The notes: generated from the sequence alone by a model not told the origin. Numbered from the stretch's first letter, positions 3,098 through 28,606 are shown. The stretch: DNA of 64,000 nt from Candidatus Marinacidobacterales bacterium (GCA_965237955.1 OZ250169.1:4640001-4704000); one strand, 5' to 3'. Program-made: numbers and translations.

Positions 3098-3799
3098 ATG
3101 CGTAAGAAGAACAGTCTCCTCCGACGGGCGTGGCGGAAGCTCTTGCACTGGCGATTCCACCGGGTGCGCCGTGCCGAGGAGACCGGGAAGCGCGGACCCC
3201 TCCTGGAGGAGGTTCTCGGCCGGCCCTTGATCGTGCTTCCGAGTGTTTTCGACCCGAAGCTCCTGCGCTCGGGCGCGTTCATCGCGGAGAGCTTGAGCGC
3301 CGTTCTCGTCCCCCCCGGTGCGCGCGTTCTCGACCTCGGGACGGGGACGGGCATCGCGGCCCTCATCGCGGCCGAGTGGGCAGAAAGCGTCGTCGCCATC
3401 GACATCAACCCCGAGGCGGTGCGAGCGGCGCGCATCAACGCTCTCCTGAACCGGCTCGAGACGAAAATCGATGTGCGTCTGGGGGACCTATTCGCTCCGG
3501 TGGCGGGAGAGCGATTCGACGTCGTCTTGTTCAATCCGCCTTTTTATCGAGGCGAGCCCCGGGATCTCCGGGATCGCGCCTGGCGAAGCCCCGACTTGGA
3601 CCACCGATTTGCCCGAGATCTCGGCCAACATCTCGAGCCGGGGGGGCATGCACTCGTCTGCCTCTCGACGGATGGGGATTTGCCGTTCGTCGACGCGCTC
3701 GGCGAGGCGGGCTTCGACGTCGAAGTCGTGACTGAGCGCGACCTCGTGAACGAAGTGCTCCGGCTGTACCGCGCGTGGCCGCGCGCGAGCTCCCGGTAG
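3098..3799 (+). CDS. HemK/PrmC-like class I SAM methyltransferase
   Basis: Motif I 'VLDLGTGTG' and 'NPPF' motif. Confidence 0.85.
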   Translation: MRKKNSLLRRAWRKLLHWRFHRVRRAEETGKRGPLLEEVLGRPLIVLPSVFDPKLLRSGAFIAESLSAVLVPPGARVLDLGTGTGIAALIAAEWAESVVAIDINPEAVRAARINALLNRLETKIDVRLGDLFAPVAGERFDVVLFNPPFYRGEPRDLRDRAWRSPDLDHRFARDLGQHLEPGGHALVCLSTDGDLPFVDALGEAGFDVEVVTERDLVNEVLRLYRAWPRASSR

Positions 3800-4899
3800 A
3801 GAGCCGTAAGCTTCGTCACGGTGACGTCCAGAGAGTAATCCTCTTGGATCCGCCGTCGTGCCGCTTCGCCCATGAGGCGACGCCGGGTACGATCCCGCGC
3901 CGTCGCCACGAGAGCCCGCGCCAGAGCTTCTTCGTCTCCGACGGGGACGGCGACGCTCGCGGGCTCGAGGTCGGGCAGGACACCGACGCGCGTCCCCACC
4001 GCGGGGCAGCCGCACGCCGCCGCCTCTTGCGTCACCCATTCCTGTCCTTCGTGACGGGAGCTCATGACGAGGAGATCGGCCGACCGGTAGTAACGGGGCA
4101 GCGTCTCGTGGGGCAGGCGCCCGTGGAAACGAACCCGCGAATCGATACCGAGGGAAGCCGCCAAGCTCCGCAGTCTCGTCGAAAGCGGCCCGTCTCCTAT
4201 TACGTGGAGGACGGCCTCGGTAAGCTCGGTGCGCGTGCGAGCGAACGCCTTGAGGAGCATGGATTGATCTTTGACGGGAACGAGAGACGCCACGTGGAGA
4301 AGCTTGAGACCTCCCTCGAGGAGTGATGGCTCACGAGCTCCCGGGTGAAACTTCGCGGTGTCGACGCCGAGAGGGAGAAACGCGGGAACGAACCCGCGCG
4401 TCTCGGCGAGTCCGGCGAGGTAGCGCGAGCCGGCGGTAATAGCCTGGGCGTCTTTCAAGGCTCGAGCCGTGAGGAGGCGGTTCAAAACGCTGAGCCGACC
4501 GCCGTAACCAATATCCGGGAGCGCTATGAGCTCACCTCCCAATAAGCTCACCACCCGGGGGATCCCGAGCCGGCGACCCGCTTGTGCCGCCACGAAGCCC
4601 GGCTCGTCGGCCCAAATACCGTGCAGGATGTCGAAAGGTTCCTGCCGGTGAAGCTGCTTGACGGCCCTGAGGGCGCGAGCGAGCAGCGGAAGCCGGGAGA
4701 GCCCCCGCGCACCGCCGCCTCCGAGGGCGCGAACTTGGACACCGTGCACGGCGTAGTCGCGGCGCATTTCCGGATATCGCAGCGTAATGACGCGGACGTG
4801 GTGGCTCTCCCGAAGCCGGCGCACGAGCGCGAGAAGCGCCGGGATGCACTCGTCCCCCTCGTGAGAGCTGAACCCGGGTACGACGAGGCCGACGTTCAT
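3544..4899 (-). CDS. Glycosyltransferase family 4 (GT-B)
   Basis: 'SSRHEGQEWVTQEAAACGCPAVGT' (ExxxxxxxE-type motif) and 'LVPVKDQ'; the C-terminal tail overlaps the convergent methyltransferase. Confidence 0.85.
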   Translation of the reverse strand: MNVGLVVPGFSSHEGDECIPALLALVRRLRESHHVRVITLRYPEMRRDYAVHGVQVRALGGGGARGLSRLPLLARALRAVKQLHRQEPFDILHGIWADEPGFVAAQAGRRLGIPRVVSLLGGELIALPDIGYGGRLSVLNRLLTARALKDAQAITAGSRYLAGLAETRGFVPAFLPLGVDTAKFHPGAREPSLLEGGLKLLHVASLVPVKDQSMLLKAFARTRTELTEAVLHVIGDGPLSTRLRSLAASLGIDSRVRFHGRLPHETLPRYYRSADLLVMSSRHEGQEWVTQEAAACGCPAVGTRVGVLPDLEPASVAVPVGDEEALARALVATARDRTRRRLMGEAARRRIQEDYSLDVTVTKLTALYRELARGHARYSRSTSFTRSRSVTTSTSKPASPSASTNGKSPSVERQTSACPPGSRCWPRSRANRWSKSGLRQARSRRSRGSPR

Positions 4900-4900
4900 C

Positions 4901-6379
4901 TCAGAAGCCCGTCGTCTCCGGCCGTTGATACGACATGATTTTGTGAAGTGCTCGTAGCTCGAACGGATACCGATACACCTCGAGGTGGTAACGCCACGCG
5001 CTTACCGCCCGAAGGACACCGCGTCGCAGCCCACGGAGCCGAAGATCCGTCGACGTCGGATAGTAGGCATTCAAGACGCGCTCGAAGTCGAAGACCCTGC
5101 GTCGGAGCGAGCGCTCGATCCACGGCATCGAAAGGCTTCGCCTCTGGGTGAACGCTTGCCACTCCGGCGAGATCCACTCCTCGAGGGTCTCCGGAAAACG
5201 GAATCCGCTCGCCTTCGCTTCTTCGTAGAGCACACCGGCGAGAGGTACGGGAGAATAGAGATACAGCACGATCTCCGAGCTGGGATTGACTCTCTTGACG
5301 CGGCGAATGAAGGCGATGGTCTGCTCGGTGTCCTTCACGGGCTCGGGCGGGTTGCCGAGAACGAACGACAGCTCGGGAACGATGCCGTACTCGGCCATCC
5401 TCCGCGCGATCTCGATCGTCTTTTCCGCCGTCGCCGTGCCGCCTTTGTTCATCCGTTTCAAGACCTCGTCGGAGCCCGACTCGGCCCCGAGGAACACCAT
5501 GCGGAGCCCGCTCTCGGCCATGAGCTTCCAGGTGCTCTCGGCGTACCCGAGCAGCGTATCGATGCGTGCCTCGCCCCACCATCCGATCTCCGCATCGACG
5601 ATGCGCTCCGAGAATTCACGCACGCGGGCCTCGTCCACGAAAAAATTGTTGTCGTAGAACTCGACGGCGTCGGCCCCGTAATCGCGTACGAGCCGGCGAA
5701 CGACGGCGGCGGTTCGCTTCGCGGACTGCGCGCGCCAGCGTCCTTCGGCCAGGTTGACGACCGCGCAGAAGTTGCAGGTGAAGGGACAGCCGTAGCTCGA
5801 GTGATGCGGAAGCGTTCGCCGTCCCAGAAACGTCGAACGGACATAGCGCTCCATAGGCACGCGATCGTAGGGAAAGTCGGGAAGCGCGTCGGGCGCCGGC
5901 AGCTCGGGGAGGACGAGCTCCGCTGTCTCACCGCTCGGTGCGCGGCGGGCGAGCCCGGGAACCTTCGCGAGACCGGGCCTGTCTCCGGATTCGAGCGCCT
6001 CGAGGAGCCGTGGAAACGTGAGATCCGCATGTCCTCTCAAGACGTAGTCGACGTAAGGAACGCGGAGACAGGCATCTTTGTGCTGCGTCGGGAAGTATCC
6101 ACCCCAGACGATCGTGACGTGCGGGTGTCGCTCCTTGAGCGCTCGGGAGAGGGGCACCGCGTGTGAGAGCTGCGGTCCGGGCATCACCGTCATCGCGACC
6201 ACGGAAGCGCCATCATCACGAATCCGTTGATCGATGGCGCCGAGCCCGTCCGGGGTCAGGTTGCCGTCGACGATGGTGAAATCACGTTGTCCTTCGAGAA
6301 CGGAGCCGAGAGCGAGTAGTGACATCGGCAGCACCGGCTTTCGCGTCGCGCTGCTCGGCGGGTTGTAGAGAACGATCAA
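4901..6379 (-). CDS. B12-binding radical SAM protein (1)
   Basis: N-terminal cobalamin-binding domain ('IVWGGYFPT'), CPFTCNFC, 'GAESGS'. Confidence 0.9.
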   Translation of the reverse strand: MIVLYNPPSSATRKPVLPMSLLALGSVLEGQRDFTIVDGNLTPDGLGAIDQRIRDDGASVVAMTVMPGPQLSHAVPLSRALKERHPHVTIVWGGYFPTQHKDACLRVPYVDYVLRGHADLTFPRLLEALESGDRPGLAKVPGLARRAPSGETAELVLPELPAPDALPDFPYDRVPMERYVRSTFLGRRTLPHHSSYGCPFTCNFCAVVNLAEGRWRAQSAKRTAAVVRRLVRDYGADAVEFYDNNFFVDEARVREFSERIVDAEIGWWGEARIDTLLGYAESTWKLMAESGLRMVFLGAESGSDEVLKRMNKGGTATAEKTIEIARRMAEYGIVPELSFVLGNPPEPVKDTEQTIAFIRRVKRVNPSSEIVLYLYSPVPLAGVLYEEAKASGFRFPETLEEWISPEWQAFTQRRSLSMPWIERSLRRRVFDFERVLNAYYPTSTDLRLRGLRRGVLRAVSAWRYHLEVYRYPFELRALHKIMSYQRPETTGF

Positions 6380-7761
6380 GTCTCGACCCCCGCTCCCAGA
6401 GCTGCCGCGCGCCGCCCTCTGTGCCCTCCGTGAATGCCGCGCGGCGTGTGCCAGGCGCCCCGGCAGCGCTGAAAAATAACGAGCGTCAGCACCAGCGTCA
6501 CAGTGCTGAGCGCGAAGAACCCCGCGATCATGCCGAGGGCGCCATACAACTTGCCGAGACCGGTAAGACCTATTAGAGCGGCCGCGCCTTCGACGATGGA
6601 GACGAGCACGAGAGGCTCTTTCTTATGAGCCCTAAGATAGCTCGCGAGAGCGAAGCGGAGCTGCTGGAGCACGATGGCCCCGAGAAAGAGAGCGCTTGCG
6701 ACAGGCGAAAGGAAGCGGCCGGCCAAATCGCTTCCGAAGAGCTCGAGGGCCGCGACGCCTCCGCAGAACACGACGGCGCCTCCCGAGACGATCGCGAGCG
6801 AGCCTAAAGTCACGCGGCGGAAGAGCGCGTCCATCGCTTCGTACTCGCGTTGCGCGGCGAGGATGGCGAGCCGCGGAACCTTCGTGGCCACGACCGCGAA
6901 GGCGACGGAGGAGATCGCGGTGGCGAACATGACGGTCATTCCCATCCGGCCTGCGACCTCCGGACCATGAAAGGCGAAGAGCACCGGAGTAAACAGGGAG
7001 AACGCGAGATAGCCGCCGATCCAGCTCACCGCGAATCTCCACTGGAGAGGCCAGACCTCGTGCCGCCACGAGAGGGCGGTCGTCCGGACCGCCGGAGCTC
7101 GCCGAATCCAAAGGCCCCGAAGGATGCGAAGGGCCTCTTCCCGGAGCGCGAGCACACCGGTGAGAAGCGTCGCGATCCGGGAGAGCGGGATGGCCAGAAG
7201 CCCCCCACCTGTCAGGATCGCGGCCCAGCTCACAAAGCGGCCTGCGAGAGCCTGGGCAAGCCGCGCGCCATAGACGCGCTCGACCTGGTTCAGCCCCTCG
7301 AGGATCGCCAGAACCGGCGTGAGGAGCACGCCTGCCGACGTCGCGAGGCAAGCGCCCCACCACAGCAGACGCCAGTGCTCGATCGCTCCGCTCGCCGGAC
7401 GAAACCTCTCGAAGTAGAGACTCCCGAGAAAACCCAGTCCCAAAAAGAGCACGAGCGCGACCCCGCAGTACCAACGACCCGCGAGCCGCTCGAGCTCGGC
7501 GAGCCGCCGGCGTGCCTTTTGTGTCTCGTCCGTGTTCTCGCGCCGCTCGAGTCGCGCCCACTCGTGGCTCGCGAACTGCTGGAGGACGTGGGCGAGCCCG
7601 AGCTCGGCAAGAGTCGTAAGCGTGAGAAGTCCCATGAACGTGAAGTAGTAACCCTGGAGCACCGGCGAAAAACGGTACGCCACGAGAGCCGCCGTGACGA
7701 GACCGGCGGCGCTTCCCCAAAGACGGTTCCCGATCGCATACCAGGTGGCCCGGTCCGTCAC
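6376..7761 (-). CDS. Wzx-like polysaccharide flippase
   Basis: About 12 TM segments, 'FSPVLQGYYFTF', 'PLQWRFAVSW'; GTG start at 7761 overlaps the upstream stop (GTGA). Confidence 0.75.
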   Translation of the reverse strand: MTDRATWYAIGNRLWGSAAGLVTAALVAYRFSPVLQGYYFTFMGLLTLTTLAELGLAHVLQQFASHEWARLERRENTDETQKARRRLAELERLAGRWYCGVALVLFLGLGFLGSLYFERFRPASGAIEHWRLLWWGACLATSAGVLLTPVLAILEGLNQVERVYGARLAQALAGRFVSWAAILTGGGLLAIPLSRIATLLTGVLALREEALRILRGLWIRRAPAVRTTALSWRHEVWPLQWRFAVSWIGGYLAFSLFTPVLFAFHGPEVAGRMGMTVMFATAISSVAFAVVATKVPRLAILAAQREYEAMDALFRRVTLGSLAIVSGGAVVFCGGVAALELFGSDLAGRFLSPVASALFLGAIVLQQLRFALASYLRAHKKEPLVLVSIVEGAAALIGLTGLGKLYGALGMIAGFFALSTVTLVLTLVIFQRCRGAWHTPRGIHGGHRGRRAAALGAGVET

Positions 7762-8804
7762 GGTCTTAGCTCCGCACTCGAAGCGACGAGCTCGATGGCT
7801 TTTTTGGCCACGTCCCGAGCGTCGTATCGAGTCAGGCAGTGCACGTCCCCGAAGCGGCACTCCGCCTCCATGCAGAACCCGCACTCGAGATCGCCGGAGT
7901 GGAGACAGACCGACGCGGGCCCGAGGGGTCGCGAACGATCGGCGCGGCTCGATCCGAACAGCGCGAGCGTCGGGACACCCGAGACCCAGGCCATGTGCAT
8001 GAGACCGGAGTCCTCAGAGAGGACTAAGCAGGCGCGCCTCACGAGAGCGAACGCCTCGGCCGGGCTCGTCCGACCCACGAGATCGACGACTGCCTCCCCG
8101 AGCTCGGCGCTCAGGTACGAGGCTTTGGGCTTCAGTGTCTGAAGCCCGAGGAGCAGAAACCGCGTGGGCGCGGGCACGAGCCGTTGCCATTCACGGGCGA
8201 AGGCGACGTAGCGGTCCAGAGGCCAGTGGCGCGAGGGAAAGGCTCCCGCCGGGTTCAGAACGACGAGCTTCGACCCGCTCCGATAGCCCGCTTGCTCGAG
8301 GAGCACGTCGACTCGTCCGTCGCTCGAAAGCTCGAGACGTGTATCCGGCCCAACCGGACCGAGCCCGGAGGCGTCGATCGCCGCGCGCGTACACTCTCCG
8401 GCCGGGAGCGGGCTTCCTCTGTCGAAGCGACTCCACGCCCGAGGCCTCGTCGCCGCCACGACGAAACGGCTGATCTCGTTGTTCTGTAGGTCGATCACGA
8501 CGTCGTAGCGTCTCGCGACGAGACGCGGCAAAAGGCCGAGTGTCGAGAGACACTGTTTCTTGAAATGCCGGCCGCCGCCAATCGCGAAGACACGGGAGAA
8601 CGTCTGGAGGCTCCTCGGAATCTCCGCCGTCTCCTCGCGGGTGAGGAGATCGACCTCCGTTTTTGGAAGCTTTCTCCGGAGAGCCGTCAAGTAGGGAAGC
8701 GTGATGACGACATCGCCCATCGCCTGGAGGCGGATGGCGAGAACGCGACCGGGCGCAGCGGCTCGGGTCCACGGCCGCGCGACGATCCGTGCTCGATCCG
8801 TCAC
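7758..8804 (-). CDS. Glycosyltransferase family 9 (heptosyltransferase-like)
   Basis: 'IRLQAMGDVV' and 'EDSGLMHMAWVSGVPTLALFG'; GTG start at 8804 overlaps the upstream stop. Confidence 0.9.
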   Translation of the reverse strand: MTDRARIVARPWTRAAAPGRVLAIRLQAMGDVVITLPYLTALRRKLPKTEVDLLTREETAEIPRSLQTFSRVFAIGGGRHFKKQCLSTLGLLPRLVARRYDVVIDLQNNEISRFVVAATRPRAWSRFDRGSPLPAGECTRAAIDASGLGPVGPDTRLELSSDGRVDVLLEQAGYRSGSKLVVLNPAGAFPSRHWPLDRYVAFAREWQRLVPAPTRFLLLGLQTLKPKASYLSAELGEAVVDLVGRTSPAEAFALVRRACLVLSEDSGLMHMAWVSGVPTLALFGSSRADRSRPLGPASVCLHSGDLECGFCMEAECRFGDVHCLTRYDARDVAKKAIELVASSAELRP

Positions 8805-9598
8805 GAGCGTCTCCGGAGCTCCAGCACGTAGTGATCGCCGAGATAAGCGAAAGGCCAAAAATGCCGGAGCGATCTCTCGACCCCTGCCATCGCGGCGAGG
8901 AGCCTCGGTCGCTTCTCGAGAACGCTCGACCAGAGCGACGGAGGGAGCGCCCATCCGAGCGCGGATAACCGCTCCACGCGGAACCCGGGCTCGAAGGCGC
9001 GGGCGAGCTCTTCGGGCCAGCGGTAGGAGATCCGGATGCGCACGTCTCCGACCCGCGCCGTCGAGCCGCTTCTCGAGAGACGCCGAAACGCCTGTCCCGC
9101 GTCGAGCCGCATCATCGAGGCCGCGAGCTCCCACAGACACAAAGGCCCCATCACCACGAAGACGACAGGAGCGTTGGGTCGCACCCAGCGCGCGAGCGCC
9201 TCGGCGAGAGGCCCGAGCTCGGCAACGCAGTTGAGTCCGCCGAAATTAGAGAACGCCCCATCGAGGCTCTCCGATGCAAGCAGAGCGGGTGGCTCCGCGA
9301 GATCCAGGATGCGGAACGCGATCGATTCCTCGAGACGCCGCCCGCGCGCTTTTTGTTCCGCCTGCGCGAGCATGGCCTTCGAGCCGTCGGTGGCCGTCAC
9401 CCGCACTCCTCGCGAGGCGAGCCAGCAGGCGTCCTCCCCGGTCCCGCAGTTGAGCTCGAGGACGTGATCGCCGGGCGCAAAGAGCGCGGCGAGACGCTCC
9501 CACACGAGGCTCCGGAGCTCCCGACCGAGCTTCGTTTCCGTGAAGGTGCGGTCATAGCTCGGCGCCGCCCGATCGAACGCAGCGATGGAAGCCCCCAT
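8801..9598 (-). CDS. Class I SAM-dependent methyltransferase
   Basis: 'VLELNCGTGEDA' and 'DGAFSNFGGLNC'. Confidence 0.9.
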   Translation of the reverse strand: MGASIAAFDRAAPSYDRTFTETKLGRELRSLVWERLAALFAPGDHVLELNCGTGEDACWLASRGVRVTATDGSKAMLAQAEQKARGRRLEESIAFRILDLAEPPALLASESLDGAFSNFGGLNCVAELGPLAEALARWVRPNAPVVFVVMGPLCLWELAASMMRLDAGQAFRRLSRSGSTARVGDVRIRISYRWPEELARAFEPGFRVERLSALGWALPPSLWSSVLEKRPRLLAAMAGVERSLRHFWPFAYLGDHYVLELRRRS

Positions 9599-11001
9599 CA
9601 CCCCTCGACCTCCCGCGCGCGGAGCGCCATCTGCAGGCGGCCCGTCGCCCACCGGGCGCCTCTTTTCGCCAGACGGCCGATGCGGCGGATCTCAATTCCC
9701 GGACGGTGGAGCTCACGGTGGAAACCAACCTCGCTCACGATCCACTTCATCGCGGCTTCGTAGTAGCGACGCGAGTGCCTTCCGGCGACGACGAGGTCCC
9801 GGTCGGAGCGATGTTCCCACGCGCGCGACGAGCCCACGCGATCGCGAACCTTTTCGTAATATCCCGTTCCCTTGATCGGATAGGCGACGGTGGTCAAAAA
9901 GACATCTGGACCGGCTTTCTTGAGATGCTCGACCGTCGCCCGCAGGTCCTCTTCTTCTTCTCCTTCGTAACCCACCATGATGAACATCCCCACCTCGATA
10001 CCTCGGCTCTGACAGAGCCGGGTCGCGGCTTGCACTTGCTCGACCGTTACCCCGCGCCGCATCGCATCGAGAATCTTCTGGCTGCCCGACTCCGATCCAA
10101 TCCAGATGCGAAAGCATCCGATGCGGGCGAGGGTATCGACGATGGGCTCGCTCAGTCGATCCGCGCGCGAGATGCACTCGAAAGGAACATGGAGCCCCCG
10201 CCGCTCGAGCTCTTCGGCATAGGCGAACAGCCACGACGGCTTGATGGTGAAGACATCATCTGCGTACCACACCTGGTCCGGCCGGTAGCGGCTTTCGAGC
10301 TCCTCGAGCTCTCGGGCGACGTTCGAAGGCGAGCGGCGGCGGTGGGTCTTTCCGTAGACGGCGTGGCTGCACCAGTCGCAGTGGTAGGCACAGCCGCGTG
10401 CGCAGATGAGCGAGAGGGAGCTTCGTCCATGATGTTCTTTCCACACGCGGAGATAGGGCTCCATGTCGATCGCGTCGCGGTCCGGCATTGGGAGGACGTC
10501 CAAGTCGGTCAGGAAAGCGCGCGGCTCGGTGCGGACAACCGAACCCTGGTCGTCGCGGAAAACGATACCGCGAACACTGTGGAGCTTCCGGGACGCGCTG
10601 CGGGAGAGTGCGAGCGCGAGCTCCTCCATGGCCTCTTCGCCCTCGCCGATCACGATCGCGTCGGCGCCGCGGGCGAGGTACTCCTCGGCATGAAACGGAG
10701 GGTCCGGCCCGCCGAGGACGACCGGAACGCCCGCGGCTTTCGCCTCTCGCACCATGTCGAGAACCCGTCGCTTGGTCATGAGGTTGCAGTAGATTCCAAC
10801 GACCGAGGGCCGCTCTCGTTCGAGTGCGGCGGTGAAGTCTTCGGGAGCGCGGAAGGTCGCGTCGAACACGGACACGGACAGACCACGTTTCTTCAGGTAC
10901 GCCGAGATGTAGAGGAGCCCGAGCGGAGAATAAGGTTTCATGACCTCTCCCTCGTGCTCGTCGAGGGCGAGATGGTAGCCGTGTGTCAAAAGAACGTGCA
11001 T
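9598..11001 (-). CDS. B12-binding radical SAM protein (2)
   Basis: 'PLGLLYISAYL', 'VVLGGPDP', CAYHCDWC, 'GSESGSQ'. Confidence 0.92.
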   Translation of the reverse strand: MHVLLTHGYHLALDEHEGEVMKPYSPLGLLYISAYLKKRGLSVSVFDATFRAPEDFTAALERERPSVVGIYCNLMTKRRVLDMVREAKAAGVPVVLGGPDPPFHAEEYLARGADAIVIGEGEEAMEELALALSRSASRKLHSVRGIVFRDDQGSVVRTEPRAFLTDLDVLPMPDRDAIDMEPYLRVWKEHHGRSSLSLICARGCAYHCDWCSHAVYGKTHRRRSPSNVARELEELESRYRPDQVWYADDVFTIKPSWLFAYAEELERRGLHVPFECISRADRLSEPIVDTLARIGCFRIWIGSESGSQKILDAMRRGVTVEQVQAATRLCQSRGIEVGMFIMVGYEGEEEEDLRATVEHLKKAGPDVFLTTVAYPIKGTGYYEKVRDRVGSSRAWEHRSDRDLVVAGRHSRRYYEAAMKWIVSEVGFHRELHRPGIEIRRIGRLAKRGARWATGRLQMALRAREVEG

Positions 11002-11004
11002 GGC

Positions 11005-12030: not shown

Positions 12031-13706
12031 GCGCGCTCCTCGCGGATGGCGGCGGAGGCGACGCCGAGAAGGATCCAAAAAGCGAGATAGATCGGGGTCA
12101 GCGCGAGGAGGTAGTCGAAGACACCGTGCACGAGAAAGCCCATTAGCGCCGCCGTAACGGTCGCGGCGGCGAGGGTAGCGTCACCCTTGCGCACCCGATA
12201 AAGGCCTCGCAATGTGCTTGCGACGAGAAGGGCAAATGCCACGGCGCCGAAGAGACCGGTCGTCGCCAGGATCTCCAAATAGAGACTGTTCGAGAACGCT
12301 CTCGTGTCCCATGAGCTCCGGCCGGCGGCGCGGCCGTACAGCCAACGGAAGTTGTCGGGACCGACGCCTGTGAGCGGCTGCTCTCGAAACAGCGACAGCG
12401 CCAGGCCCCAGAGCTCCAGACGCCCGGGACGCCACGCGAGGCTCGCGATCCTCTCGCCGAGCTCGGAGAGCTCGGCCAGCTCAGAAAGACCGCCCTCACC
12501 GACCGGACCGACGGCGACTCGCACGAAAGCGCCGATCCCCGTCTTGTCGGAAAACCAAGTCATGCGCCCGTGCACCATGTCCCAAATCAGAACGTACTGT
12601 CCAGGATGTGCGGGCGCCCGAACGTCAGCATAGAGATCCACCTGCTCATCCGGTGCGAGCGATTTATCGAGCCGGGTCCTAGTGCCTTCGATGCCGAGGG
12701 GCACGAGGCCGCGCTCGTCGGCGGTAAACCACCGATACGAGAGGAAGAAGTCTCTTTTCTCGGAGGGCCACGGCATCCTTCCTGTGTTTGTTACGCTCAC
12801 ACGCATCGTCCGGCGCTCGCCCGGCTCTAGCGAGAGCGAGTTCGTCTCCGGCGAAAGCGCGGCGCGGTACCACGCGGCATCTCCCTCATTCGCGACCCGC
12901 AAGCGAAACGTCGGATCGGACAGGCTCGAGACGAACAGAAGCGCGACGAACCCGAGCAAGAGCCAGAAGAGAAACCGCGAGCCGTCCGGTCTCCGACGTC
13001 TGAGCCAGAGCCACTGGAGCAACAGGGCGCTCACCGCGCCGAGAACGGCGCCACGCGAACGGGTCAAGAGAATGGAAGCGAACATGCCGGTAGCGGCCAT
13101 ACCCGCGAGCGTTCTCACGCCACGCCGCGTGCGTTCATGGCTCACGAAATACAGCGCGGCGGGGAGAGCGAGAACGAGAAACCCCGCCGTCGTATTCGGA
13201 AAAGCAAACGTCGCCGTGACTCGAGGCTGGCCGCCCACTTCGAAAGGATGCTCGCGAAACGGAGCGAGCCACGACGCCATCGCGACGGGACGGAGAGCCT
13301 CGACGACGGCCAAGATCGCCGTGACGCTTCCGGCGACGGAGAATCCGGTGAAGACGACGCCCCAACGCGCCACCGGCCCGAGAGCCGAGGACGTGAGGAA
13401 GAATGCAACGACTCCCGCCGTCAAACGGAGACTGAACTTGAGCGGCAGGACTCGAGGTGGAGCCGACGCCAGGGTCGACACCATAAAGGCAAGGAGCAAC
13501 AAGAGAGCCCACGCCGCGAGAGGCACCGGACGGCGGTGGAACCCGCCCTTCGGGTAGAGCCCCAAAAGGAAGCCGGCGGTCGAAAGGAGCAACAACGCCA
13601 CGACCTCGAGCAAGCTCATCTCGAAACCTAGGGCGTGCGCCACGGGCTCCATGGGCTCGAAGGGCAGGAGCGCTGCGAGGAGACCGATGGCGACGACGGC
13701 TTGCAT
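12027..13706 (-). CDS. O-antigen ligase/Wzy_C family protein with inserted Ig-like domain
   Basis: 'FPNTTAGFL', 'LTRSRGA', 'PLTGVGPDNF', 'HGVFDY'; soluble insert 'VTNTGRMPW...LSYRW...PGQYVLIWDMV'. Confidence 0.85.
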   Translation of the reverse strand: MQAVVAIGLLAALLPFEPMEPVAHALGFEMSLLEVVALLLLSTAGFLLGLYPKGGFHRRPVPLAAWALLLLLAFMVSTLASAPPRVLPLKFSLRLTAGVVAFFLTSSALGPVARWGVVFTGFSVAGSVTAILAVVEALRPVAMASWLAPFREHPFEVGGQPRVTATFAFPNTTAGFLVLALPAALYFVSHERTRRGVRTLAGMAATGMFASILLTRSRGAVLGAVSALLLQWLWLRRRRPDGSRFLFWLLLGFVALLFVSSLSDPTFRLRVANEGDAAWYRAALSPETNSLSLEPGERRTMRVSVTNTGRMPWPSEKRDFFLSYRWFTADERGLVPLGIEGTRTRLDKSLAPDEQVDLYADVRAPAHPGQYVLIWDMVHGRMTWFSDKTGIGAFVRVAVGPVGEGGLSELAELSELGERIASLAWRPGRLELWGLALSLFREQPLTGVGPDNFRWLYGRAAGRSSWDTRAFSNSLYLEILATTGLFGAVAFALLVASTLRGLYRVRKGDATLAAATVTAALMGFLVHGVFDYLLALTPIYLAFWILLGVASAAIREERA

Positions 13707-14714
13707 CTACTTCTTTTCCGCGATGAACAGAGGAAACCGCGCGGGCGGCGGGAGACGGCGCAGGCGGCAGTAGCGGCGCCGCAGAGCTCGCCTCGTGCCC
13801 TCGAAGGGCAGCCTCACGTCCACGTCGAAGCCGAGCTCTTGCAGAAGCGCGACCGTCTCGGAGAGAACGAGGAAGCCCGCCGGTCGGGGATCGTCGTTGA
13901 TTCCGTATCGTTCGCGGTGCTCTCGCTCGCGGCGCTCCACCATGGCGCGTCCTACGCGAGGATCGTCGTACGCCGGGCTGTCCAGGAGAATCAAGAAGCC
14001 GCCGCGCCGCATGAGACGGCGGGACTCCTTCAGCACGCGCGGCGGGCTCTCCGCGTAGTGAATGGAAGCGTTGGCGACGACCAAATCGAACTGAGAGTCG
14101 TCCAGCGGGAGAGATTCCATGTCGGCCCGGGCCCGTGTAACTCTATCGTGAATCCCGCGGCAGCTCCTCTGGTACCGGTCCATCGCCAGTAGACCGTCGT
14201 CCTCATCGAGAGAAATGTCCGTCGCCAGAACGTAGTGCCCCCTCGTAGCCATACGCCAGGAGAGCCACCCATTCCCGGCGCCAAGCTCGAGGACCTGGAG
14301 CACGCGCCGTCCGCACGCGCCGCCTCGCTCACCCGCCTCGATCGAGCGAAGCACCGAAAGAAAGTGTCTAAAATTTCTAGCGCGCAATCTCCAGATACTC
14401 CGATGTCTTCCGGTTCGTTCGAGGAAAGGGAGCGCGCGGTAATAGTCCGCGTCGCCGCTCCATCCCTCGACGCGCCGGAGCCGGCCGTAGCTGTCGAGAA
14501 ACTGCGCGAACGTACGCGCACGCTCCTCGGACAGAAGGGGAAGGACCTCGCCTCGACTCTCGATTCTTCCCCCCTCGGCGGGACAGACCAGATCGAACCC
14601 GAGGGCGAAGGCGGTGGAACCGCACTCGGGGCAGCGGAGCTTCCATCCATCAAAAGCGTCGGTAGTAGTGAGCGGGGCCTCTTCCGGACGGGAGGCGTCA
14701 TAGGCGATGGACAT
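13707..14714 (-). CDS. Class I methyltransferase with N-terminal Zn-ribbon/Trm112-like segment
   Basis: 'LRCPECG...VCP', 'VLELGAGNGW', 'FDLVVANASIHY'. Confidence 0.85.
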   Translation of the reverse strand: MSIAYDASRPEEAPLTTTDAFDGWKLRCPECGSTAFALGFDLVCPAEGGRIESRGEVLPLLSEERARTFAQFLDSYGRLRRVEGWSGDADYYRALPFLERTGRHRSIWRLRARNFRHFLSVLRSIEAGERGGACGRRVLQVLELGAGNGWLSWRMATRGHYVLATDISLDEDDGLLAMDRYQRSCRGIHDRVTRARADMESLPLDDSQFDLVVANASIHYAESPPRVLKESRRLMRRGGFLILLDSPAYDDPRVGRAMVERREREHRERYGINDDPRPAGFLVLSETVALLQELGFDVDVRLPFEGTRRALRRRYCRLRRLPPPARFPLFIAEKK

Positions 14715-16794
14715 GACTCATTTGCCTCGAAACGGAGGTAGTACCGGACTCCTCCAGGGCGCGATCTAATCCCAGCAGCCCGTTGAGCTTCCTGGAGAGC
14801 TCGGCTCCGTGGTCGTTGAAGTGCAGCTTGATGACACCGGTCTTGAGCGTTACGGACTCAGGGCCGCCCGCCCTTCGCCACTGCCGACGGAGGTGGCTCC
14901 GGAGAAGTAGCCGTCCCATCCACTCCAAGAGAGCGCCACCTCCCACAGACAGAAACCGCTCGAGCCGAGAAGCACCCGCGGGCGGTTCGTCACCGCCAAT
15001 GGGCTCGTGCTCACGAAAACGTTCCCAGAAGTTCGGGAAGAATCGCGCTCCCCAGCCGTTGGCCCGGACAAAGCGCCGGTAGACCGCGTGACCCGCGATG
15101 GGTCGCAAGCCGAGAATCTGGTTCGCGGTGAAGGCGTCGTTCTCGGTCAGGGTGAGACGATCCTCGCCCAGGAAATAGTTCAGGCACATCGTGCGCCGGA
15201 GTCCCAGAAGCTTCATTGCCACGAAGAGAAAAAGCGCGACCGCCCAGGTCTTCCCTCGCTTCGTGATGAGAAAGAGGTCGATGTCTCCGTCGGCGGCGTT
15301 CTCTTTCGCGATGGCGCCCGAGAGCGCCACCATGCGCACGAAGGGAGTACGCCGAACGAGCTCCAGGACGCCGCGGTGCTCTTCCAAGAGCACGCGCGAG
15401 AGGCGACGCGTGCGCGCGCGGGACTCGACCGAGGAGCGACGGCCTTTTAGGAAGAAGAAAGGCGGCGCGCGCTCCACCGCCCCGAGCACGTGAGGATCTT
15501 CGTCGAGAATCCGGCGTAACTCTCGTCGCGAGAGCGTGACGCCCAGTAGAGAGCGCTCGATCTCCGGAAGTGTCATCGGGTAGTCGAAATGGGCCCCGTA
15601 GGCGATGGTGTCCACGACCGCGCGAGCTTCCCTTGCGTTCGTTGTTTCGGCGATCCGATGGCGGACTCGCACCGTCCGCCGCTCGAGCGCCTCCTCGTAA
15701 ACGGCCAGCGTGTCGCGCGCGGTCCGCTCCCATGAAAAGGAGCGCGCCCGAGCGAGCCCGGCCCCAATCCACGTCTCGCGGTCTCTCGTGTCGGACAGCG
15801 CGTGCTCCATTCCTTCGCTCAGACAGTCGACGTCGTGCGGATCGACGAGGAGCGCCGCCTCCGCCGCGATTTCTTCGAGGGAGGATGTCTTCGAGGTGAG
15901 CACGGGCACACCACAAGCCATCGCCTCGAGCACGGGAAAGCCGAACCCCTCGTACAGAGAGGGATAAACGAACAGCTCGGCATGGGAGTAGAGCGCGGGA
16001 AGCGCGTCCTCGTCAACGTAGCCGAGGTGTTTGACGGCGCCATCGAGCCCGAAGGCTTCGAGGCTTTGCAATAGTTCTTTGGACCGCCAGCCGACGTCGC
16101 CGGCCAAGTAGAAGCGGTGGTCGGGAAAGCGAGGCCGTATCCGGGAAAAGGCTTCGACTGCGCGAACGAGATTCTTCCTCGGCTCTAGTGTTCCCACATA
16201 CAAGAGGTACGGCTTCCGGAGCTGGAAGCGTTCTCGAAGGCGGCTCCAGCTCTTCCGGCTCGTGTTCGGGCGGAAGTGCGTGTCCGCCGCGTGGGGAATC
16301 ACTCGTATCTTGTGCTTCGAGATGCGGAAGATGCGAGCGAGGTCCTCCTTGGTCGACTCCGACGGCGTGATGACGAGCCGCGCCCGTTTGGCAATAGCGG
16401 GCGCGATGGTCGCCGTCAGCAATCGTTTCCGCCACCTGTGAAATTGCGGAAAGAGCTGCAGAGTCATGTCGTGAAACGTCACCACGAATGGCCGGTCGAG
16501 CGCGAGCGGGGCGAGATAGTTCGTGAAATGGCAAAGGTCGGGGCTCATCTCGCGCAGAATAAACGGGAGCACTCCTTGCATCCACGGCGCGCGCAACGGA
16601 AAATAGCCCGACGCCACCTGCCGTGCTCGCGGAAGCGGTCCGAAAGCAATAGGTCGATTCGATAGAACGAGAAGCTCGTCGATGGGGTTTGTGTCTCCCC
16701 CGACGCGAGTGAGCCTATCGAGAAGGCGCGACGAGTAATAGCCGACCCCGGTCTTGTTGCCCCGAATCGTGGTGGCGTCGTATCCCAGAAGCAT
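14698..16794 (-). CDS. GT4 glycosyltransferase fused to a nucleotidyltransferase-like domain
   Basis: N-half 'PSLYEGFGFPVLEAMACG'; C-half 'VALSGAIA...DGDIDLFLI' (Pol-beta-type G[SA]...DxD). Confidence 0.85.
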   Translation of the reverse strand: MLLGYDATTIRGNKTGVGYYSSRLLDRLTRVGGDTNPIDELLVLSNRPIAFGPLPRARQVASGYFPLRAPWMQGVLPFILREMSPDLCHFTNYLAPLALDRPFVVTFHDMTLQLFPQFHRWRKRLLTATIAPAIAKRARLVITPSESTKEDLARIFRISKHKIRVIPHAADTHFRPNTSRKSWSRLRERFQLRKPYLLYVGTLEPRKNLVRAVEAFSRIRPRFPDHRFYLAGDVGWRSKELLQSLEAFGLDGAVKHLGYVDEDALPALYSHAELFVYPSLYEGFGFPVLEAMACGVPVLTSKTSSLEEIAAEAALLVDPHDVDCLSEGMEHALSDTRDRETWIGAGLARARSFSWERTARDTLAVYEEALERRTVRVRHRIAETTNAREARAVVDTIAYGAHFDYPMTLPEIERSLLGVTLSRRELRRILDEDPHVLGAVERAPPFFFLKGRRSSVESRARTRRLSRVLLEEHRGVLELVRRTPFVRMVALSGAIAKENAADGDIDLFLITKRGKTWAVALFLFVAMKLLGLRRTMCLNYFLGEDRLTLTENDAFTANQILGLRPIAGHAVYRRFVRANGWGARFFPNFWERFREHEPIGGDEPPAGASRLERFLSVGGGALLEWMGRLLLRSHLRRQWRRAGGPESVTLKTGVIKLHFNDHGAELSRKLNGLLGLDRALEESGTTSVSRQMSHVHRL

Positions 16795-16803
16795 GATCTT
16801 TCC

Positions 16804-18213
16804 TCAGGGGCTGCCGACGTCCGTCGGTGAAAGCATCCTCCCCGAAGGCGTTGGCGAAACCGTCTCGACGGTTTCGTGGACGCGCTCGGGAGTCGTTAGC
16901 GAGCCAACGGGAGGACGGAGCAGATCCAAAGTAAAGGCCAGACTCGCCGCGGTCAGACTCCACTCGGCGGCGCAAACGGCCATGGCTGCTCCCGAGGCGC
17001 CGTGACTCGGAATCAAGATCACGTCGAGCAGAATCCCTACCGAGAAACGAACGAGGACGGCGGCGAGGAGCCGGCGAGGTCTCTCGGCGGCGATCAGCAG
17101 GTGCGTCGTGAGCGCGTTCAGATACACGGCCGGGATCGCGAGGCCGAGCCATGCGAGGACGGGCGCCGCGTCGCTGAATCCAGCCCCGTAGACAGCGGTC
17201 AGCGTCGGCCCGGCTAGCGCGAAAAAGACGGTGCCGATGGGGAAGGCGGCGGCGAGGAGCCACGTTCCGAGCAGCCGTATCAGCGGCCCATGGGTACCTT
17301 GGCCCATGGCGCGCACCAGGAGCGGGAACGCGCCCGCAACGATCGCCGCGGAGATGACGAAAGTGGCTTCGAAGAGACGGAACGACGCAGCGAACAGACC
17401 CACTTCGACGGGCGCGCCGAGCACGGCGAGGATGAGCAGATCCGCCCTCAAGTAAATGAGTGTGACGACGGACGTCGCCGCGAGCGGCAGGACGTCCCGA
17501 ACGAGCGGTCCCGGCTCGGGCGTGGCGGCCTGCGCTTCCGATCCCGCCGCTCGTCGCCTCAAGACCCCAGCCGCGGCGAAGAGCGCAGGAACGCTCGCGA
17601 GGGCAAGGTAAATGGCCAGCTGGCGAAGATCCGTGCTCCGCCACACGGCGAGAACTGAAGCGACGAGCCAGCTCGAACGCAGCACGACGAGGAGCACCCC
17701 CTCGCGGGCCACGCCCCCGCGACTCCGGAGCACGACACCGCCGAGTTCGACCCATGAGCCGGCCAACTGCACGAACAGAAGGAGGGCGAGCGGGAACGCA
17801 TCTGCGTCGAGCGCCTGCGTTGCCAGGAGCACGGCGATACCCGCGGCCGCGAGCCCGGAAAGAAGTGCTTTCGCGCCGAGGATGCCGCGGAGCGTTTTCG
17901 CCCGGAAGTGGCGCGAGAGCCTCCGGAGCCCGACGACGTGGAGCCCGAGATCCGTCGCCTGCGCCAGCATCCAGGCCGTGTACCAGAGGACGGCGAAACG
18001 ACCGAACCCGTCGGCGCCGAGACGCCGCGCGAGCACGATCGCCATCAGGAAGCTCAGCGAACGGGACGAGACATCCCAGAAGAGCTTGCCGCTACTTGCG
18101 ACGAACGCTCGGCTGCGGGCGTCGGCGTCTGGACTCGTTCCTTCTGTTGTGTTTGCCATCCAAACAGGGAAAAGCAATCTCCGTGCCGGCGGCGCGTGCG
18201 ACGGAGCAGGCAT
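16804..18213 (-). CDS. Wzx/MOP-family oligosaccharide flippase (start uncertain)
   Basis: 'LARRLGADGFG', 'TDLGL', 'IYLRADLLIL', 'GASGAA'. Confidence 0.82.
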   Translation of the reverse strand: MPAPSHAPPARRLLFPVWMANTTEGTSPDADARSRAFVASSGKLFWDVSSRSLSFLMAIVLARRLGADGFGRFAVLWYTAWMLAQATDLGLHVVGLRRLSRHFRAKTLRGILGAKALLSGLAAAGIAVLLATQALDADAFPLALLLFVQLAGSWVELGGVVLRSRGGVAREGVLLVVLRSSWLVASVLAVWRSTDLRQLAIYLALASVPALFAAAGVLRRRAAGSEAQAATPEPGPLVRDVLPLAATSVVTLIYLRADLLILAVLGAPVEVGLFAASFRLFEATFVISAAIVAGAFPLLVRAMGQGTHGPLIRLLGTWLLAAAFPIGTVFFALAGPTLTAVYGAGFSDAAPVLAWLGLAIPAVYLNALTTHLLIAAERPRRLLAAVLVRFSVGILLDVILIPSHGASGAAMAVCAAEWSLTAASLAFTLDLLRPPVGSLTTPERVHETVETVSPTPSGRMLSPTDVGSP

Positions 18214-18287
18214 TTTTAGGCGCGTTTCGAGCCGGCCTTACAACCCGCGTAAGCAAGTTACGAAACGAGAAAGCCGGCTGTCGGAGC

Positions 18288-19739
18288 TCAAGCGACACCG
18301 AGGGCACGGTTCTGCCGGTGCGAGCGGATCTCGAGGCGCATCCGGGCGGCCATGAGCCCGACGAGCTCCCTTACGGCTCGGGCGGCGGCCATCGGCCGGG
18401 GCAGGCGTCCGAGCTCGCGGCGCAAGCGGAAGTCCCGGTGAACGAACTGATAGAGCGCCCGGTAGAAACCCGGCGTGTACCGGCCGCGAAACATGAGATC
18501 CAGATCGTCGCTGTCGGTCCAGTTGCTCTTGTCACCGAGCTGGGATCGGACGCGCTCGTAGAATGGAGTTCCGGGTAGCGGGTAGCTGACGGAGATACCG
18601 ATGTCGTCCGGTCTGGCAAGCCGCACCATCTCCAGAGTCTTCTCGATATCTTCCCACTCCTCGCCGGGATAGCCGAACTGTAGAAAGAAGCAAACGCGGA
18701 TTCCACGCGAGCGAAGGAGTCTCGCTGCGTCGTGAATCTGTTCGACACGCGTTCCCTTGTCCATAGCATCGAGAATCTTCTGAGAGCCGCTCTCCGCTCC
18801 GAGCCATACGCTCTCGCATCCGGCGCGGGCGAGCGCGTCGGCCACGGTCTCATCAATCAAATCGACGCGGGCCTGGATCTTGAACGAGGTCACCACCCCG
18901 CGAGATTCGACTTCTCGAGCGAACGCCTCCACCCAACCGGGCTCGAGACCGAAGATGTCGTCCGCGAACCAGATGTGATCCGGCTCGAGGTTGTGCTTCA
19001 CCCACGCGAGCTCTTCGGCGACGTTCGCGGGTGAGCGCACGCCGTAACGCTGTCCATAGATGGGCTTCGCACACCAGTTGCAGTGATAGGGACAGCCTCT
19101 GGTCGTCACCATGTTGATCGAGAAGATGTCGTGACGTTTTCGCCACGCGCTCCGGTATCGTTCGGCGTCGATGAGATCCCAAGCGGGAAAAGGAAGACCA
19201 TCCAGGTCCTGAATCAATCCGCGAGGCGCCGACTTCACCACTTCGCCGTCACGGCCGAGGTAGGCGAGCCCGGCGACGCTCCCGAGCTCGGCCGTCGGCC
19301 CTCCCAGAGAGAACGCCTCGACGAGCTCGGCGAGGCTCAGCTCGCCCTCTCCCAACAAAGCGACATCGATGTCCGCCTGCAGATACTCCTCCAGCCGATC
19401 GGTGGCATCGGATCCGTTCACGACAACCGTAGCCCCTTTCGACCTCGCGAGACGTGCCTTCTCGAAGGCCGCGCTCCGCATGTTCGTGAGGCACATTTTG
19501 GACAGGTAGTTGAAGTTGTCTTCGTAAAGGGCCACGAGCTGGGGGCGAAAGCGGTCGAGGTCGGTCTCATACTCGTCGTGTCCCGACGCCAACATCGAAT
19601 CCGAAAGGAACACCTCGTGCCCTCGCTCTCTCAAGACCGACGCCGCGTACAGCGTTCCCAGAGGCGGATAAGGCTCGAGCACATTTGTTTGCTTCGGGTC
19701 CAGCTCTAGCTGGAAGGAGGGTGAGAGGAGCACTCTCAT
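18288..19739 (-). CDS. B12-binding radical SAM protein (3)
   Basis: 'YPPLGTLYAAS', CPYHCNWC, 'GAESGSQ'; clear paralog of 9598..11001. Confidence 0.92.
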   Translation of the reverse strand: MRVLLSPSFQLELDPKQTNVLEPYPPLGTLYAASVLRERGHEVFLSDSMLASGHDEYETDLDRFRPQLVALYEDNFNYLSKMCLTNMRSAAFEKARLARSKGATVVVNGSDATDRLEEYLQADIDVALLGEGELSLAELVEAFSLGGPTAELGSVAGLAYLGRDGEVVKSAPRGLIQDLDGLPFPAWDLIDAERYRSAWRKRHDIFSINMVTTRGCPYHCNWCAKPIYGQRYGVRSPANVAEELAWVKHNLEPDHIWFADDIFGLEPGWVEAFAREVESRGVVTSFKIQARVDLIDETVADALARAGCESVWLGAESGSQKILDAMDKGTRVEQIHDAARLLRSRGIRVCFFLQFGYPGEEWEDIEKTLEMVRLARPDDIGISVSYPLPGTPFYERVRSQLGDKSNWTDSDDLDLMFRGRYTPGFYRALYQFVHRDFRLRRELGRLPRPMAAARAVRELVGLMAARMRLEIRSHRQNRALGVA

Positions 19740-19885
19740 GACGCCATGGTAGCACAAGGCTTTCCGAGTCCGATGTTCGATCTGTTAGCGCGCTCACCAG
19801 CGCGAAGTCCCGGGCGTACGGGCGTACTGTATGAGCTTGGTCACACTTTCGAAGGGCGATGTCTTCGGCAGCGCTACAATGGTTC

Positions 19886-20903
19886 ATGACGTTTCAATGG
19901 CCTTCCGACTTCGTGCGGATCCCCGACGAGGAGTGGGGCCGTCGCCCCATCGAAGAGCTCGCGCGCAAGTACGACACCGTGGAGGCCCACGGCTGGTATC
20001 GAAACCTCGAGCCGACCGTCACGGCGCTCGCTGCATTCTTGAACGACGGCGACGTGCTCCTGGACTACTCGGCGGGCACCGGAATCCTTGCGAGCCGTCT
20101 TCTTACCGGAGATCCCGACTTCGGAATTCTGCTCGTCGATTCCTCGCCCAAGTTCTTACGACTGGCTCTCGAGAAGTTCCGTCACGACGAGCGTGTCGCC
20201 TTTCGATGGGTTCGCTACTTGCGAGACGAGAAACGCATCCAGTTAATAGACGAAGTCATACGCGGCGAGCTCTTGACTCGCGGGATCAAAGCGGTCTCGA
20301 GCACGAACGCCATTCACCTCTATTACGACGTTCCCGCAACGATCGCTTGCTGGAAGCGGATCTTGTGCCGCGACGGCGCGGTGTTCGCGCAGTCGGGCAA
20401 CATCCGCCATCCACGCGCGCCGGCGGAACACTGGATCATCGACGAAACGGTCGAGGCCGTTCACGAGGAAGCCCTCCGCATCGTCGCCGCCGATCCGGAC
20501 TATCGGCTCTACGTCGAAGGGACTCGCGAGCCCGAGCGGATGAAGGCCTACGAGCGCCTTCGCCGCAAGTTCTTCCTTCCGGTGCGCGACCTCGACTACT
20601 ACCTGGAGGCATTTGAGCAGGCGGGCCTCCCCGTGACCGACGTGTTCTAACAGGGCCTACGACGCCAACGTGGAACAGTGGTATCAGTTTGTGAACACCT
20701 ATCACGAAGGTGTATTGGGTTGGGTCGGCGGTAGCGAGCGGATCGAGGGCAAGCGGCCCGGGCCAAAGGCAATAGAAGATCGCCTGGCCCTCATGCGAAA
20801 AGCCATGGAACGGGTTTTCGAAGGAAATGCTTCCTTCCTCGCAGGATGGACCTACCTCCGTGCGGACAAGGGCGCTAGTGCTCGATCCCCGGTCCTCGTG
20901 TAG
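19886..20903 (+). pseudogene. Class I methyltransferase, frameshifted near 20645
   Basis: 'LLDYSAGTG'; the frame stops at 20650, but removing one T in GTGTTCTAAC joins it to the 20670..20903 ORF. Confidence 0.7.
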
Positions 20904-27215: not shown

Positions 27216-27751
27216 GCCTTGGTGCACAACTCCGATAGAGGCCGAGAGCTCGCTTGGCCCCGACTCCCATCATCCGATCATCTCGCTATCAGGCATCCCG
27301 AGCGCCGTCATCGTGTTGAGAATCTTGCACCCGATCCTTGCCTCGACTCTCTGTGCCGCCAACCCTCTCGCTCGCATCGCTGAGCCCACGATAGCCTTGT
27401 AGCGATGGAACGTTGTCTCGACTTTGCTCCGTTTGCTGTAGCCCGATTCTGTGTGCCACTTTCGTTTGCCGAGCCGAGCTTGTGCTGCAATGTTGCGATT
27501 GCGCTGTCGGCTGCTCGCCGGCCCCGATGCGAGCTGGGCGCCCTTGCGCGGCGGTATCAGCACCCTCGGCGAGCAATGAGCGCTGTGATTCTCGATTGCC
27601 TCATAGACGCCGCCGGCGTCGTATGCGGTGTCAGCTCTGGCCGATGAGATGGGACTGTCGATCTGTCCGACAAGCGATGCAACCCGCGATGAATCGCGGG
27701 CTCTTTTGCTCGTCAGCTCGCCGGCGACGACTTCGCCACTCTGCTCGTCGA
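27216..27751 (-). mobile_element. IS5-family (IS903-like) truncated copy
   Basis: Appears identical to 42549..43084, including the IR GCCTTGGTGCACAACTC. Confidence 0.88.
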
Positions 27752-28554: not shown

Positions 28555-28606
28555 GGCCCATCGAGGCATCCATGTCTCAGACGTGTGCTAGGATACCCGC
28601 CTTCTT

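Follow-up and report, generated by a model that had tools for sequence, protein, structure and literature searches.

What does a bacterium build with several cobalamin (B12)-binding radical S-adenosylmethionine (SAM) enzymes that are encoded side by side with glycosyltransferases and flippases? This question is raised by positions 3098–20903 of a 64,000-nt stretch from a Candidatus Marinacidobacterales bacterium (GCA_965237955.1 OZ250169.1:4640001-4704000; the whole stretch is hereafter called the window, and locus coordinates are positions in it). An earlier note on this DNA had proposed that a lipid-linked glycan or glycolipid is heavily radical-modified here before its export. We concluded that the cassette is real, conserved and uncharacterised. 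We think it rather probable that the operon makes a multiply C-, O- and N-methylated sugar unit in the cytoplasm, which would then be flipped and ligated onto a cell-surface glycoconjugate. This proposal is built on which genes are present, how they are coupled and conserved, and what fusions and folds they show; from these we infer all the chemical steps. A glycan-linked product is still the best reading, but the conserved unit is a core of genes rather than the whole set, and one of the four methyltransferases counted before (MT4) is not a member.

The operon and its radical SAM enzymes

The locus contains 12 coupled minus-strand genes (3544–19739). In the direction from 19739 to 3544 these are rS3, wzxB, GT4b-NTase, MT3, a ligase-like gene, rSP, rS2, MT2, GT9, wzxA, rS1 and GT4a (NTase, nucleotidyltransferase; MT, methyltransferase; GT4 and GT9, glycosyltransferase families 4 and 9). 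Gaps of −17 to +74 bp separate them, with 4-bp overlaps in five cases (GTGA three times, ATGA and TTGA once each), so that the tight coupling noticed earlier was borne out. Pfam domain calls recovered every gene class of the earlier note in its place, with corrections to details. Scans for promoters (1 promoter-like site, where 1.5 were expected) and terminators (22 terminator-like sites against 14.6 ± 3.9 expected) were uninformative. The host genome (G000) is a single contig of 8.13 Mb, 98% complete, and it appears to use B12, judging by its cobalamin riboswitch and by further proteins that bind B12.

The three B12-binding radical SAM enzymes are rS1 (4901–6379, minus strand, with a TTG start and the motif CPFTCNFC), rS2 (9598–11001, minus) and rS3 (18288–19739, minus), the first gene of the run. 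Both Pfam domains are over cut-off in all three: the B12-binding domain PF02310 scores 52, 80 and 39 bits, respectively, against a cut-off of 32, and PF04055 (Radical_SAM) is accompanied by one CxxxCxxC motif per enzyme. This confirms the presence of three radical SAM enzymes with a B12-binding domain, as reported before. rS2 and rS3 are paralogues with 39% identity. In a quick tree, which contains no characterised enzymes, rS1 groups with a fourth type found in other loci, rS4, and rS2 groups with rS3, each type being its own clade that spans phyla (SH-aLRT 95–100).

None of the three enzymes came near the curated cut-off of the NCBIfam equivalogs BchE, HpnJ, HpnR, PhpK, BzaD, AprD4 and TsrM. 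The best score of the radical SAM enzymes was to BchE (116–145 bits against a cut-off of 481); HpnJ scored 94–127 against 578, and two lipid-type models, HpnR and TIGR04072, scored 49–110 against 650 and 50–118 against 360. By these scores none can be assigned to a characterised family. The enzymes fall into several large families that are automatically annotated as BchE or YgiQ (6396 matches at E ≤ 1e-30, distant relatives among them). In a plasmid search for annotated close homologs, rS1 returned 12 records, all of about 30% identity or less, and rS3 returned none.

We compared the cobalamin-binding regions with the motifs of the class as given in the available text of PMC9204698, namely GG, a downstream G-x-S/T-x and GE. 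The rS1 family has WGG, TVM and GHgE (GHAD in the window copy), and rS1 and rS4 look canonical by this comparison. rS2 has GGP and GEGE together with G-x-Y, that is, Tyr at the Ser/Thr position. In the divergent region of rS3, GSDAT replaces GG, and GEGE is kept. The Trp that stands two residues past the Cys motif in the iterative methylases TokK, ThnK and CysS, according to the same text, is absent from rS1–rS4 (C-A-V, C-S-H, C-A-K and C-A-D). That text names methylation as the commonest activity of the class, and it places GenK/GenD1, Fms7, MoeK5 and HpnJ in sugar-containing pathways. HpnJ, BchE and OxsB show that the class is also capable of rearrangement.

The host genome also carries a lone, frameshifted rS4 orthologue of 57–60% identity (G000:C1:1533742-1535149; L180:9742-11149, minus), about 3.1 Mb from the operon and amid transporter genes; it is the result of either misassembly or gene decay.

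The fourth radical SAM enzyme, rSP (11005–12030, minus), had been called SPASM-like. Its Pfam Radical_SAM domain stands, and the SPASM part does not: five C-terminal cysteines (C263, C280, C319, C322 and C324) are invariant in an alignment of 21 sequences, and by the spacing of known twitch domains they are a predicted twitch-type and not a full SPASM set. BlsE was the best match of rSP by sequence, by Foldseek and by VIA (Z 28.0, root-mean-square deviation (rmsd) 3.0 over 303 residues; next match Z 23.1). Against the BlsE model TIGR04466 it scored 51 bits, below the cut-off of 400. The rSP family also conserves a Met before the third motif cysteine, which the accessible part of PMC3715490 describes as an unusual feature of BlsE.

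Three class I methyltransferases belong to the core. MT2 (8801–9601, minus) and MT3 (13707–14714, minus) lie within the run, and Pfam domains confirm them. MT3 has an N-terminal Cys-containing, Trm112-like segment, and one MT3 homolog gave a weak match to PF03966. The third is a HemK/MTQ2-like enzyme (3098–3799, plus strand; PF05175) with an NPPF motif, the roles of which are known from HemK-type enzymes; LFNPP is conserved across 64 sequences. In the related loci this gene is mostly found directly upstream of rS1, whereas in the window it is inverted and stands tail-to-tail with GT4a. In the nearest locus to the window, L016 (also Ca. Marinacidobacterales), we observed it in the same inverted position with only its 3′ part found (L016:12730-12933), which suggests decay after the inversion. 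Both flanking opposite-strand methyltransferases noticed earlier are present, and the left of the two belongs to the core. On the right, MT4 (19859–20903, plus; PF08242, weak and below cut-off) is frameshifted and unrelated: its open frame 19859–20650 stops too soon, and the coding sequence goes on to 20903 in a different frame, the change lying near 20650. We rejected MT4 as a cassette member, as it occurred in 0/80 related loci and 0/40 relatives.

A conserved core with exchangeable glycan genes

Relatives were collected by a scan with rS1, one genome per species. It gave 268 confirmed relatives. We retained the best 80 of them, in which rS1 is 57–69% identical across phyla. The counts of the cassette genes refer, at a threshold of 80 bits, to those 38 loci that reach 20 kb or more, with 42 shorter loci omitted. 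By their titles, the carriers belong to Chloroflexota, Acidobacteriota, Cytophagia/Rhodothermales (Bacteroidota), Gemmatimonadota and KSB1, so that the core recurs across phyla, against the lack of co-conservation that would have refuted the earlier note. The HemK-type methyltransferase was present in 31 of the 38 loci, rS3 in 29, MT2 in 27, the NTase in 25, MT3 and GT4a in 24 each, rS2 in 23 and rSP in 17. The ligase (10), GT4b (6), wzxA and GT9 (one each), and wzxB and MT4 (none) were much rarer. The counts for MT2 (23–27) and MT3 (20–24) depended on the query set.

With extra queries, one B12 type was found in 8 loci, two in 8, three in 12 and four in 10; in other words, 22 of the 38 rS1-anchored loci keep three or four distinct types. 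A flippase, GT-C or ligase gene was present in 32/38; these genes belong to a number of unrelated families, PMT-like, GT87 and various Wzx types among them. These patterns define two modules: a conserved core of radical SAM, methyltransferase and NTase genes, and an interchangeable flippase/GT9/ligase set, of which the window's GT9, wzxA and wzxB are lineage-specific members. The architecture that had been taken as one unit is conserved in its core and not in these three genes.

rS1 was found in 9/40 relatives. In four genomes (G013, G009, G001 and G016), wzxB, GT4b-NTase, MT3, ligase, GT9 and wzxA stay together as a block, and the radical SAM genes shift around it; both ends of this block were seen in stretches of G025. 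G013 and G009 have a second locus with rS2, rS4, the HemK-type methyltransferase and rSP. A further radical SAM family, K24 (5 loci), adjoins this split rS2–rS4–HemK–rSP locus on the opposite strand (L155:7789-8964 and L156:8528-9703).

We also counted the genes in 300 genomes of the phylum that are at least 90% complete, with one unpublished genome (G063) taken as a non-carrier. The NTase profile matched 23/300 genomes, and rS2 or rS3 was present in 38/300. All 23 NTase genomes had rS2 or rS3, compared with 15 of the 277 others, an association that is inflated by related genomes, as kin are not independent.

The glycosyltransferases and membrane proteins agree with the classes noted before. 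GT4a (3544–4899, minus; PF00534/PF13692) has a domain that ends near residue 372; its last ∼80 codons are antisense to the HemK gene, and its orthologues in L148 and L149 have 375 aa. GT9 (7758–8804, minus; PF01075) is heptosyltransferase-like, with WaaC/WaaF scores below their cut-offs. The O-antigen-ligase/Wzy_C-like membrane protein (12027–13706, minus) matches PF04932 with 50.6 bits, over its cut-off, and has an Ig-like insertion (NBR1, PF16158). Two flippases had been claimed. wzxB (16804–18213, minus) passes the Pfam cut-off (PF01943, Polysacc_synt, 30.2 bits against 28.2), and wzxA (6376–7761, minus) is a probable flippase only: a crude scan gave eight hydrophobic segments, there was no Pfam match, and NF041503 (WZX_like) scored 63 bits against a cut-off of 300. 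In close relatives wzxA is 52–57% and wzxB 45–48% identical. The locus thus has a flippase, polymerase/ligase and glycosyltransferase set (PF01943, PF04932, GT4 and GT9).

Near the operon, an unassigned multi-pass protein (194–1684) and a secreted protein rich in repeats (1711–2937) are encoded, and a PMT_2 GT-C gene (28774–30255) lies in a neighbourhood of membrane and secreted genes (27628–30255). Elsewhere in the host genome, a GT4 gene pair occurs in three near-identical copies with equal tblastn scores (G000:C1, around 255600, 649100 and 663100), which suggests a repeated segment or an assembly duplication.

A fused nucleotidyltransferase-like module and the proposed product

The gene at 14698–16794 (minus) encodes more than the GT4 recognised before. 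Its Pfam GT4 domain covers residues 1–372, and the second half of the protein (residues ∼385–690, about 14701–15654) is a separate module with a winged helix and a predicted NTase fold. The window copy matches no Pfam family; its atlas neighbours (score 0.95) have PF01909 in 11–15% of members. The pol-beta-type NTase motif is hG[GS]x9-13DhD. In an alignment of 24 modules, G113, D124, D126 and C157-x-N159 are invariant, which gives G-A-x9-D-x-D with A, E, S or G after G113, and C-x-N-Y occupies the strand where the third catalytic acid is usual. The predicted structure (pLDDT 86.8) places the winged helix at residues 1–75 and the NTase-like core at 83–207. This core matched ANT(4′)/MNT folds weakly (Z 6.2–7.9; the top matches Z 7.7–7.9, rmsd ∼3 over 106–114 residues), and Foldseek matches had E values of 0.03 or weaker. 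Tam41- and LicD-type NTases were not among the fold matches listed, which does not exclude them.

Among 46 long NTase-containing proteins, 43 have a GT4, that of the window included, and three are fusions of the NTase to rS3 (P0246, P0249 and P0250); P0285 also carries MT3. The close GT4–NTase fusions carry names of Acidobacteriota of the class Vicinamibacteria, to which the host genome too probably belongs. As the NTase fuses either to a GT4 or to a B12 enzyme, it links the glycan and the radical SAM modules. The accessible text of PMC6993621 reports that PsmN, of an NTase family, is required for hexose addition to a phosphorylated peptide, from which it follows that NTase folds can serve in sugar-phosphate attachment.

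Since the winged helix resembles DNA- and RNA-binding domains, the cassette might instead hypermodify RNA or DNA, with the NTase binding the nucleic acid. The NPPF-type methyltransferase and weak GT4-conflict hits in Pfam would fit such a role. However, most loci contain flippase, GT-C and ligase genes, and the cassette is patchily distributed (38/300) and freely rearranged, which speaks against this role; we hold it to be highly improbable.

A hydrophobic helix at residues 136–150 of the NTase could also be read as a sign that the B12 enzymes methylate or cyclise the chain of a non-hopanoid membrane lipid, from which the NTase would make a cytidine diphosphate-linked lipid that is then glycosylated. 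B12 radical SAM enzymes do modify lipids (GrsA/B and a ladderane candidate in PMC13459092, whose available text has no mention of Chloroflexota or Acidobacteria), and Acidobacteriota make methylated ether lipids, the methylases for which were not found described in the literature searched. The lipid-type NCBIfam models, however, score far below cut-off, in a comparison that did not extend to GrsA/B directly, and none of the genes that recur in the loci is for an acyl carrier or for lipid synthesis. With three methyltransferases of class I and a BlsE-like enzyme, the cassette also suits a polar substrate better. We regard a lipid chain as an improbable substrate.

In 15 carriers negative for the NTase, the NTase profile had no match at E ≤ 0.001, in a search run without a positive control. 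We fetched the loci of 12 NTase-free carriers. Within the stretches read, NTP_transf_5 was present in 8 and an HprK-like kinase in 9, figures that are to be taken with no control for the local background frequency of these genes and with 7 of the 8 NTP_transf_5 cases coming from one family. The NTase-free variant (L160–L171, L173, L174 and L178, mostly family f39) has a methyltransferase–amidohydrolase fusion, GT87, GTP cyclohydrolase II, a flavin-reductase-like gene, PhyH and a NanM-like sugar O-methyltransferase besides these two.

A pair of an NTP_transf_5 protein and an HprK-like kinase phosphorylates and hexosylates pseudomycoidin (PMC6993621). Together with the HemK-type methyltransferase, this brings up a modified peptide or protein as the product, of the ribosomally synthesised and post-translationally modified peptide kind, in which the winged helix would be a recognition element and the NTase would add a sugar-phosphate like PsmN. 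Among 4327 small intergenic open reading frames from 138 loci, no conserved short frame recurred and the leading clusters turned out to be fragments of genes or shadow frames, although a distant or highly variable precursor could escape such a search. No peptidase recurs in the loci either. The predicted winged helix starts with helices, unlike the PqqD-type element, and the concentration of NTP_transf_5 in a single family also speaks against it. A peptide product is very unlikely in our judgement.

We return to the methylated sugar unit. In the proposed pathway, the BlsE-like rSP would first remodel a sugar of the uronic-acid type, which it would dehydrate, decarboxylate or epimerise. rS1, rS2 and rS3 (and rS4 elsewhere) would then add C-methyl groups from methylcobalamin at differing positions, and O- or N-methyl groups would come from MT2, MT3 and the HemK-type enzyme. 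The winged-helix NTase may activate the unit with a nucleoside triphosphate, or make a phosphodiester link, and hand it over to the fused GT4b. The unit would be loaded on, or extended on, a lipid carrier by GT4a, GT4b and GT9, carried across the membrane by the Wzx flippases, and attached or polymerised by the ligase-like protein. The presence of GT9 hints at a link to the core region of lipopolysaccharide in this lineage.

Several observations weigh against this proposal. The B12 enzymes have no close characterised relative, their PDB matches (OxsB, TsrM, CysS and TokK) being weak, at most 58 bits; and cobalamin binding and methylase activity of rS2 and rS3 are not certain, because rS3 lacks the GG motif and rS2 has the Tyr. 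rSP is 20% identical to BlsE, and the window copy has Thr at the position of the BlsE-like Met. The strength of the NTase fold matches is in the range of common arrangements. No sugar-nucleotide synthesis gene, initiating phosphoglycosyl transferase or chain-length regulator was found among the genes at 3098–20903, the rest of the genome not having been searched for the latter two. A genome-tile control gave 0/376, a figure that is biased because its queries were derived from these loci. Finally, L027, L028 and L045, which have near-complete cores, and L177 showed no glycan gene among the genes scanned (61 of 124 unlabelled genes). L177 has most of the core, and in the same genome, G046, the ligase–GT4b–NTase genes lie ∼110 kb off. 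Such loci and the split arrangement imply that the core is separable and may make a soluble or free unit.

This leads to the alternative that the product of the core is a small soluble molecule, glycosylated or nucleoside-like, in the manner of blasticidin or the aminoglycosides, with the flippase-like proteins as exporters and the other glycan genes as looser neighbours. BlsE has as its substrate a nucleoside uronic acid, which a glycosyltransferase produces (PMC3715490), and the nearest NTase folds are those of aminoglycoside nucleotidyltransferases. Some variants, moreover, have an additional amidohydrolase of deaminase-like type (23 loci) or a GTP cyclohydrolase II (7 loci). The amidohydrolase, however, resembles purine/deoxyadenosine deaminases below cut-off and may just clear SAM by-products. 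GT87/PMT-like GT-C genes and ligase genes recur in 19 and 14 of the 38 long loci, and enzymes of these types act on lipid-linked donors. We consider a soluble product unlikely, and prefer the surface-bound sugar unit.

If this is true, a widespread envelope modification has so far gone undescribed. Three to four B12 enzyme types are kept at 50–70% identity in bacteria that abound in soil and sediment and belong to at least five phyla; functions would be gained for large families automatically annotated as BchE or YgiQ, and a new NTase family would be added. B12 radical SAM sugar chemistry is known from antibiotic pathways and not from surface-glycan loci. In its boldest form, which we offer as a tentative and rather doubtful extension, the cassette would be a cross-phylum envelope block. 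In it, radical SAM enzymes would rebuild a sugar in four to five steps (with branches, ring alterations or extended alkyl ethers), and a new winged-helix NTase family, which physically ties the B12 enzymes to a GT4, would activate this sugar or link it by a phosphodiester. The flippase, GT-C and ligase would be interchangeable in Chloroflexota and Acidobacteriota, and a second NTase family with a kinase would replace the NTase step in one acidobacterial family. Carriers of a variant with few-contig assemblies exist, and a cultured carrier may exist.

Likeness to known systems

The literature searched, in which most subscription journals were not covered, holds no description of this cassette, in line with the earlier statement that no characterised product was known for the architecture. 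New here are the link made by the GT4–NTase and NTase–rS3 fusions, the assignment of rSP as BlsE-like, the NTase-free variant, and the exclusion of hopanoids at the level of the genome.

Hopanoid head-group tailoring by HpnI, HpnK and HpnJ resembles the proposed pathway in that a B12 radical SAM enzyme acts on a lipid-linked sugar. We rejected a hopanoid product, as no squalene-hopene cyclase was found in the 98% complete host genome or in 30 of the 38 carriers; the cyclase occurs in 8/38 carriers and in 0/23 NTase carriers, and the HpnJ scores are far from their cut-off.

GenK/GenD1, Fms7 and MoeK5 (PMC9204698, in the text available) share the B12-binding and radical SAM architecture and are clustered with glycosyltransferases and methyltransferases. 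In contrast to these, the cassette has three to four paralogous types per locus, which are tied to flippase and GT-C/ligase genes, and it has no close sequence match in the PDB, with no pairwise comparison to GenK or MoeK5 behind this statement. BlsE and MilG, the twitch radical SAM enzymes of the blasticidin S type that act on cytosylglucuronic acid, are likened to rSP by the best sequence and fold match, the C-terminal Cys cluster and the family Met. They differ from it by the low identity and sub-threshold model score given above, and no nucleoside-peptide genes recur in the loci.

ArnT-type decoration is a GT-C-dependent surface glycan pathway. With such pathways and the Wzx/Wzy pathways (O-antigen and exopolysaccharide), the operon shares GT4 and GT9 enzymes, Wzx flippases and a ligase/GT-C. 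It differs from them in that it lacks genes for an initiating transferase, a chain-length regulator and sugar nucleotides, and in its radical SAM core, which is not part of the described pathways as far as the literature searched reaches. The NTase module shares the G-x-x9-D-x-D motif and, to judge by weak fold matches, a pol-beta-type core with MNT, ANT(4′) and PsmN. It is set apart from them, besides the missing Pfam family of the window copy, by its N-terminal winged helix, its invariant C-x-N-Y and its fusion to a GT4 or to a B12 radical SAM enzyme.

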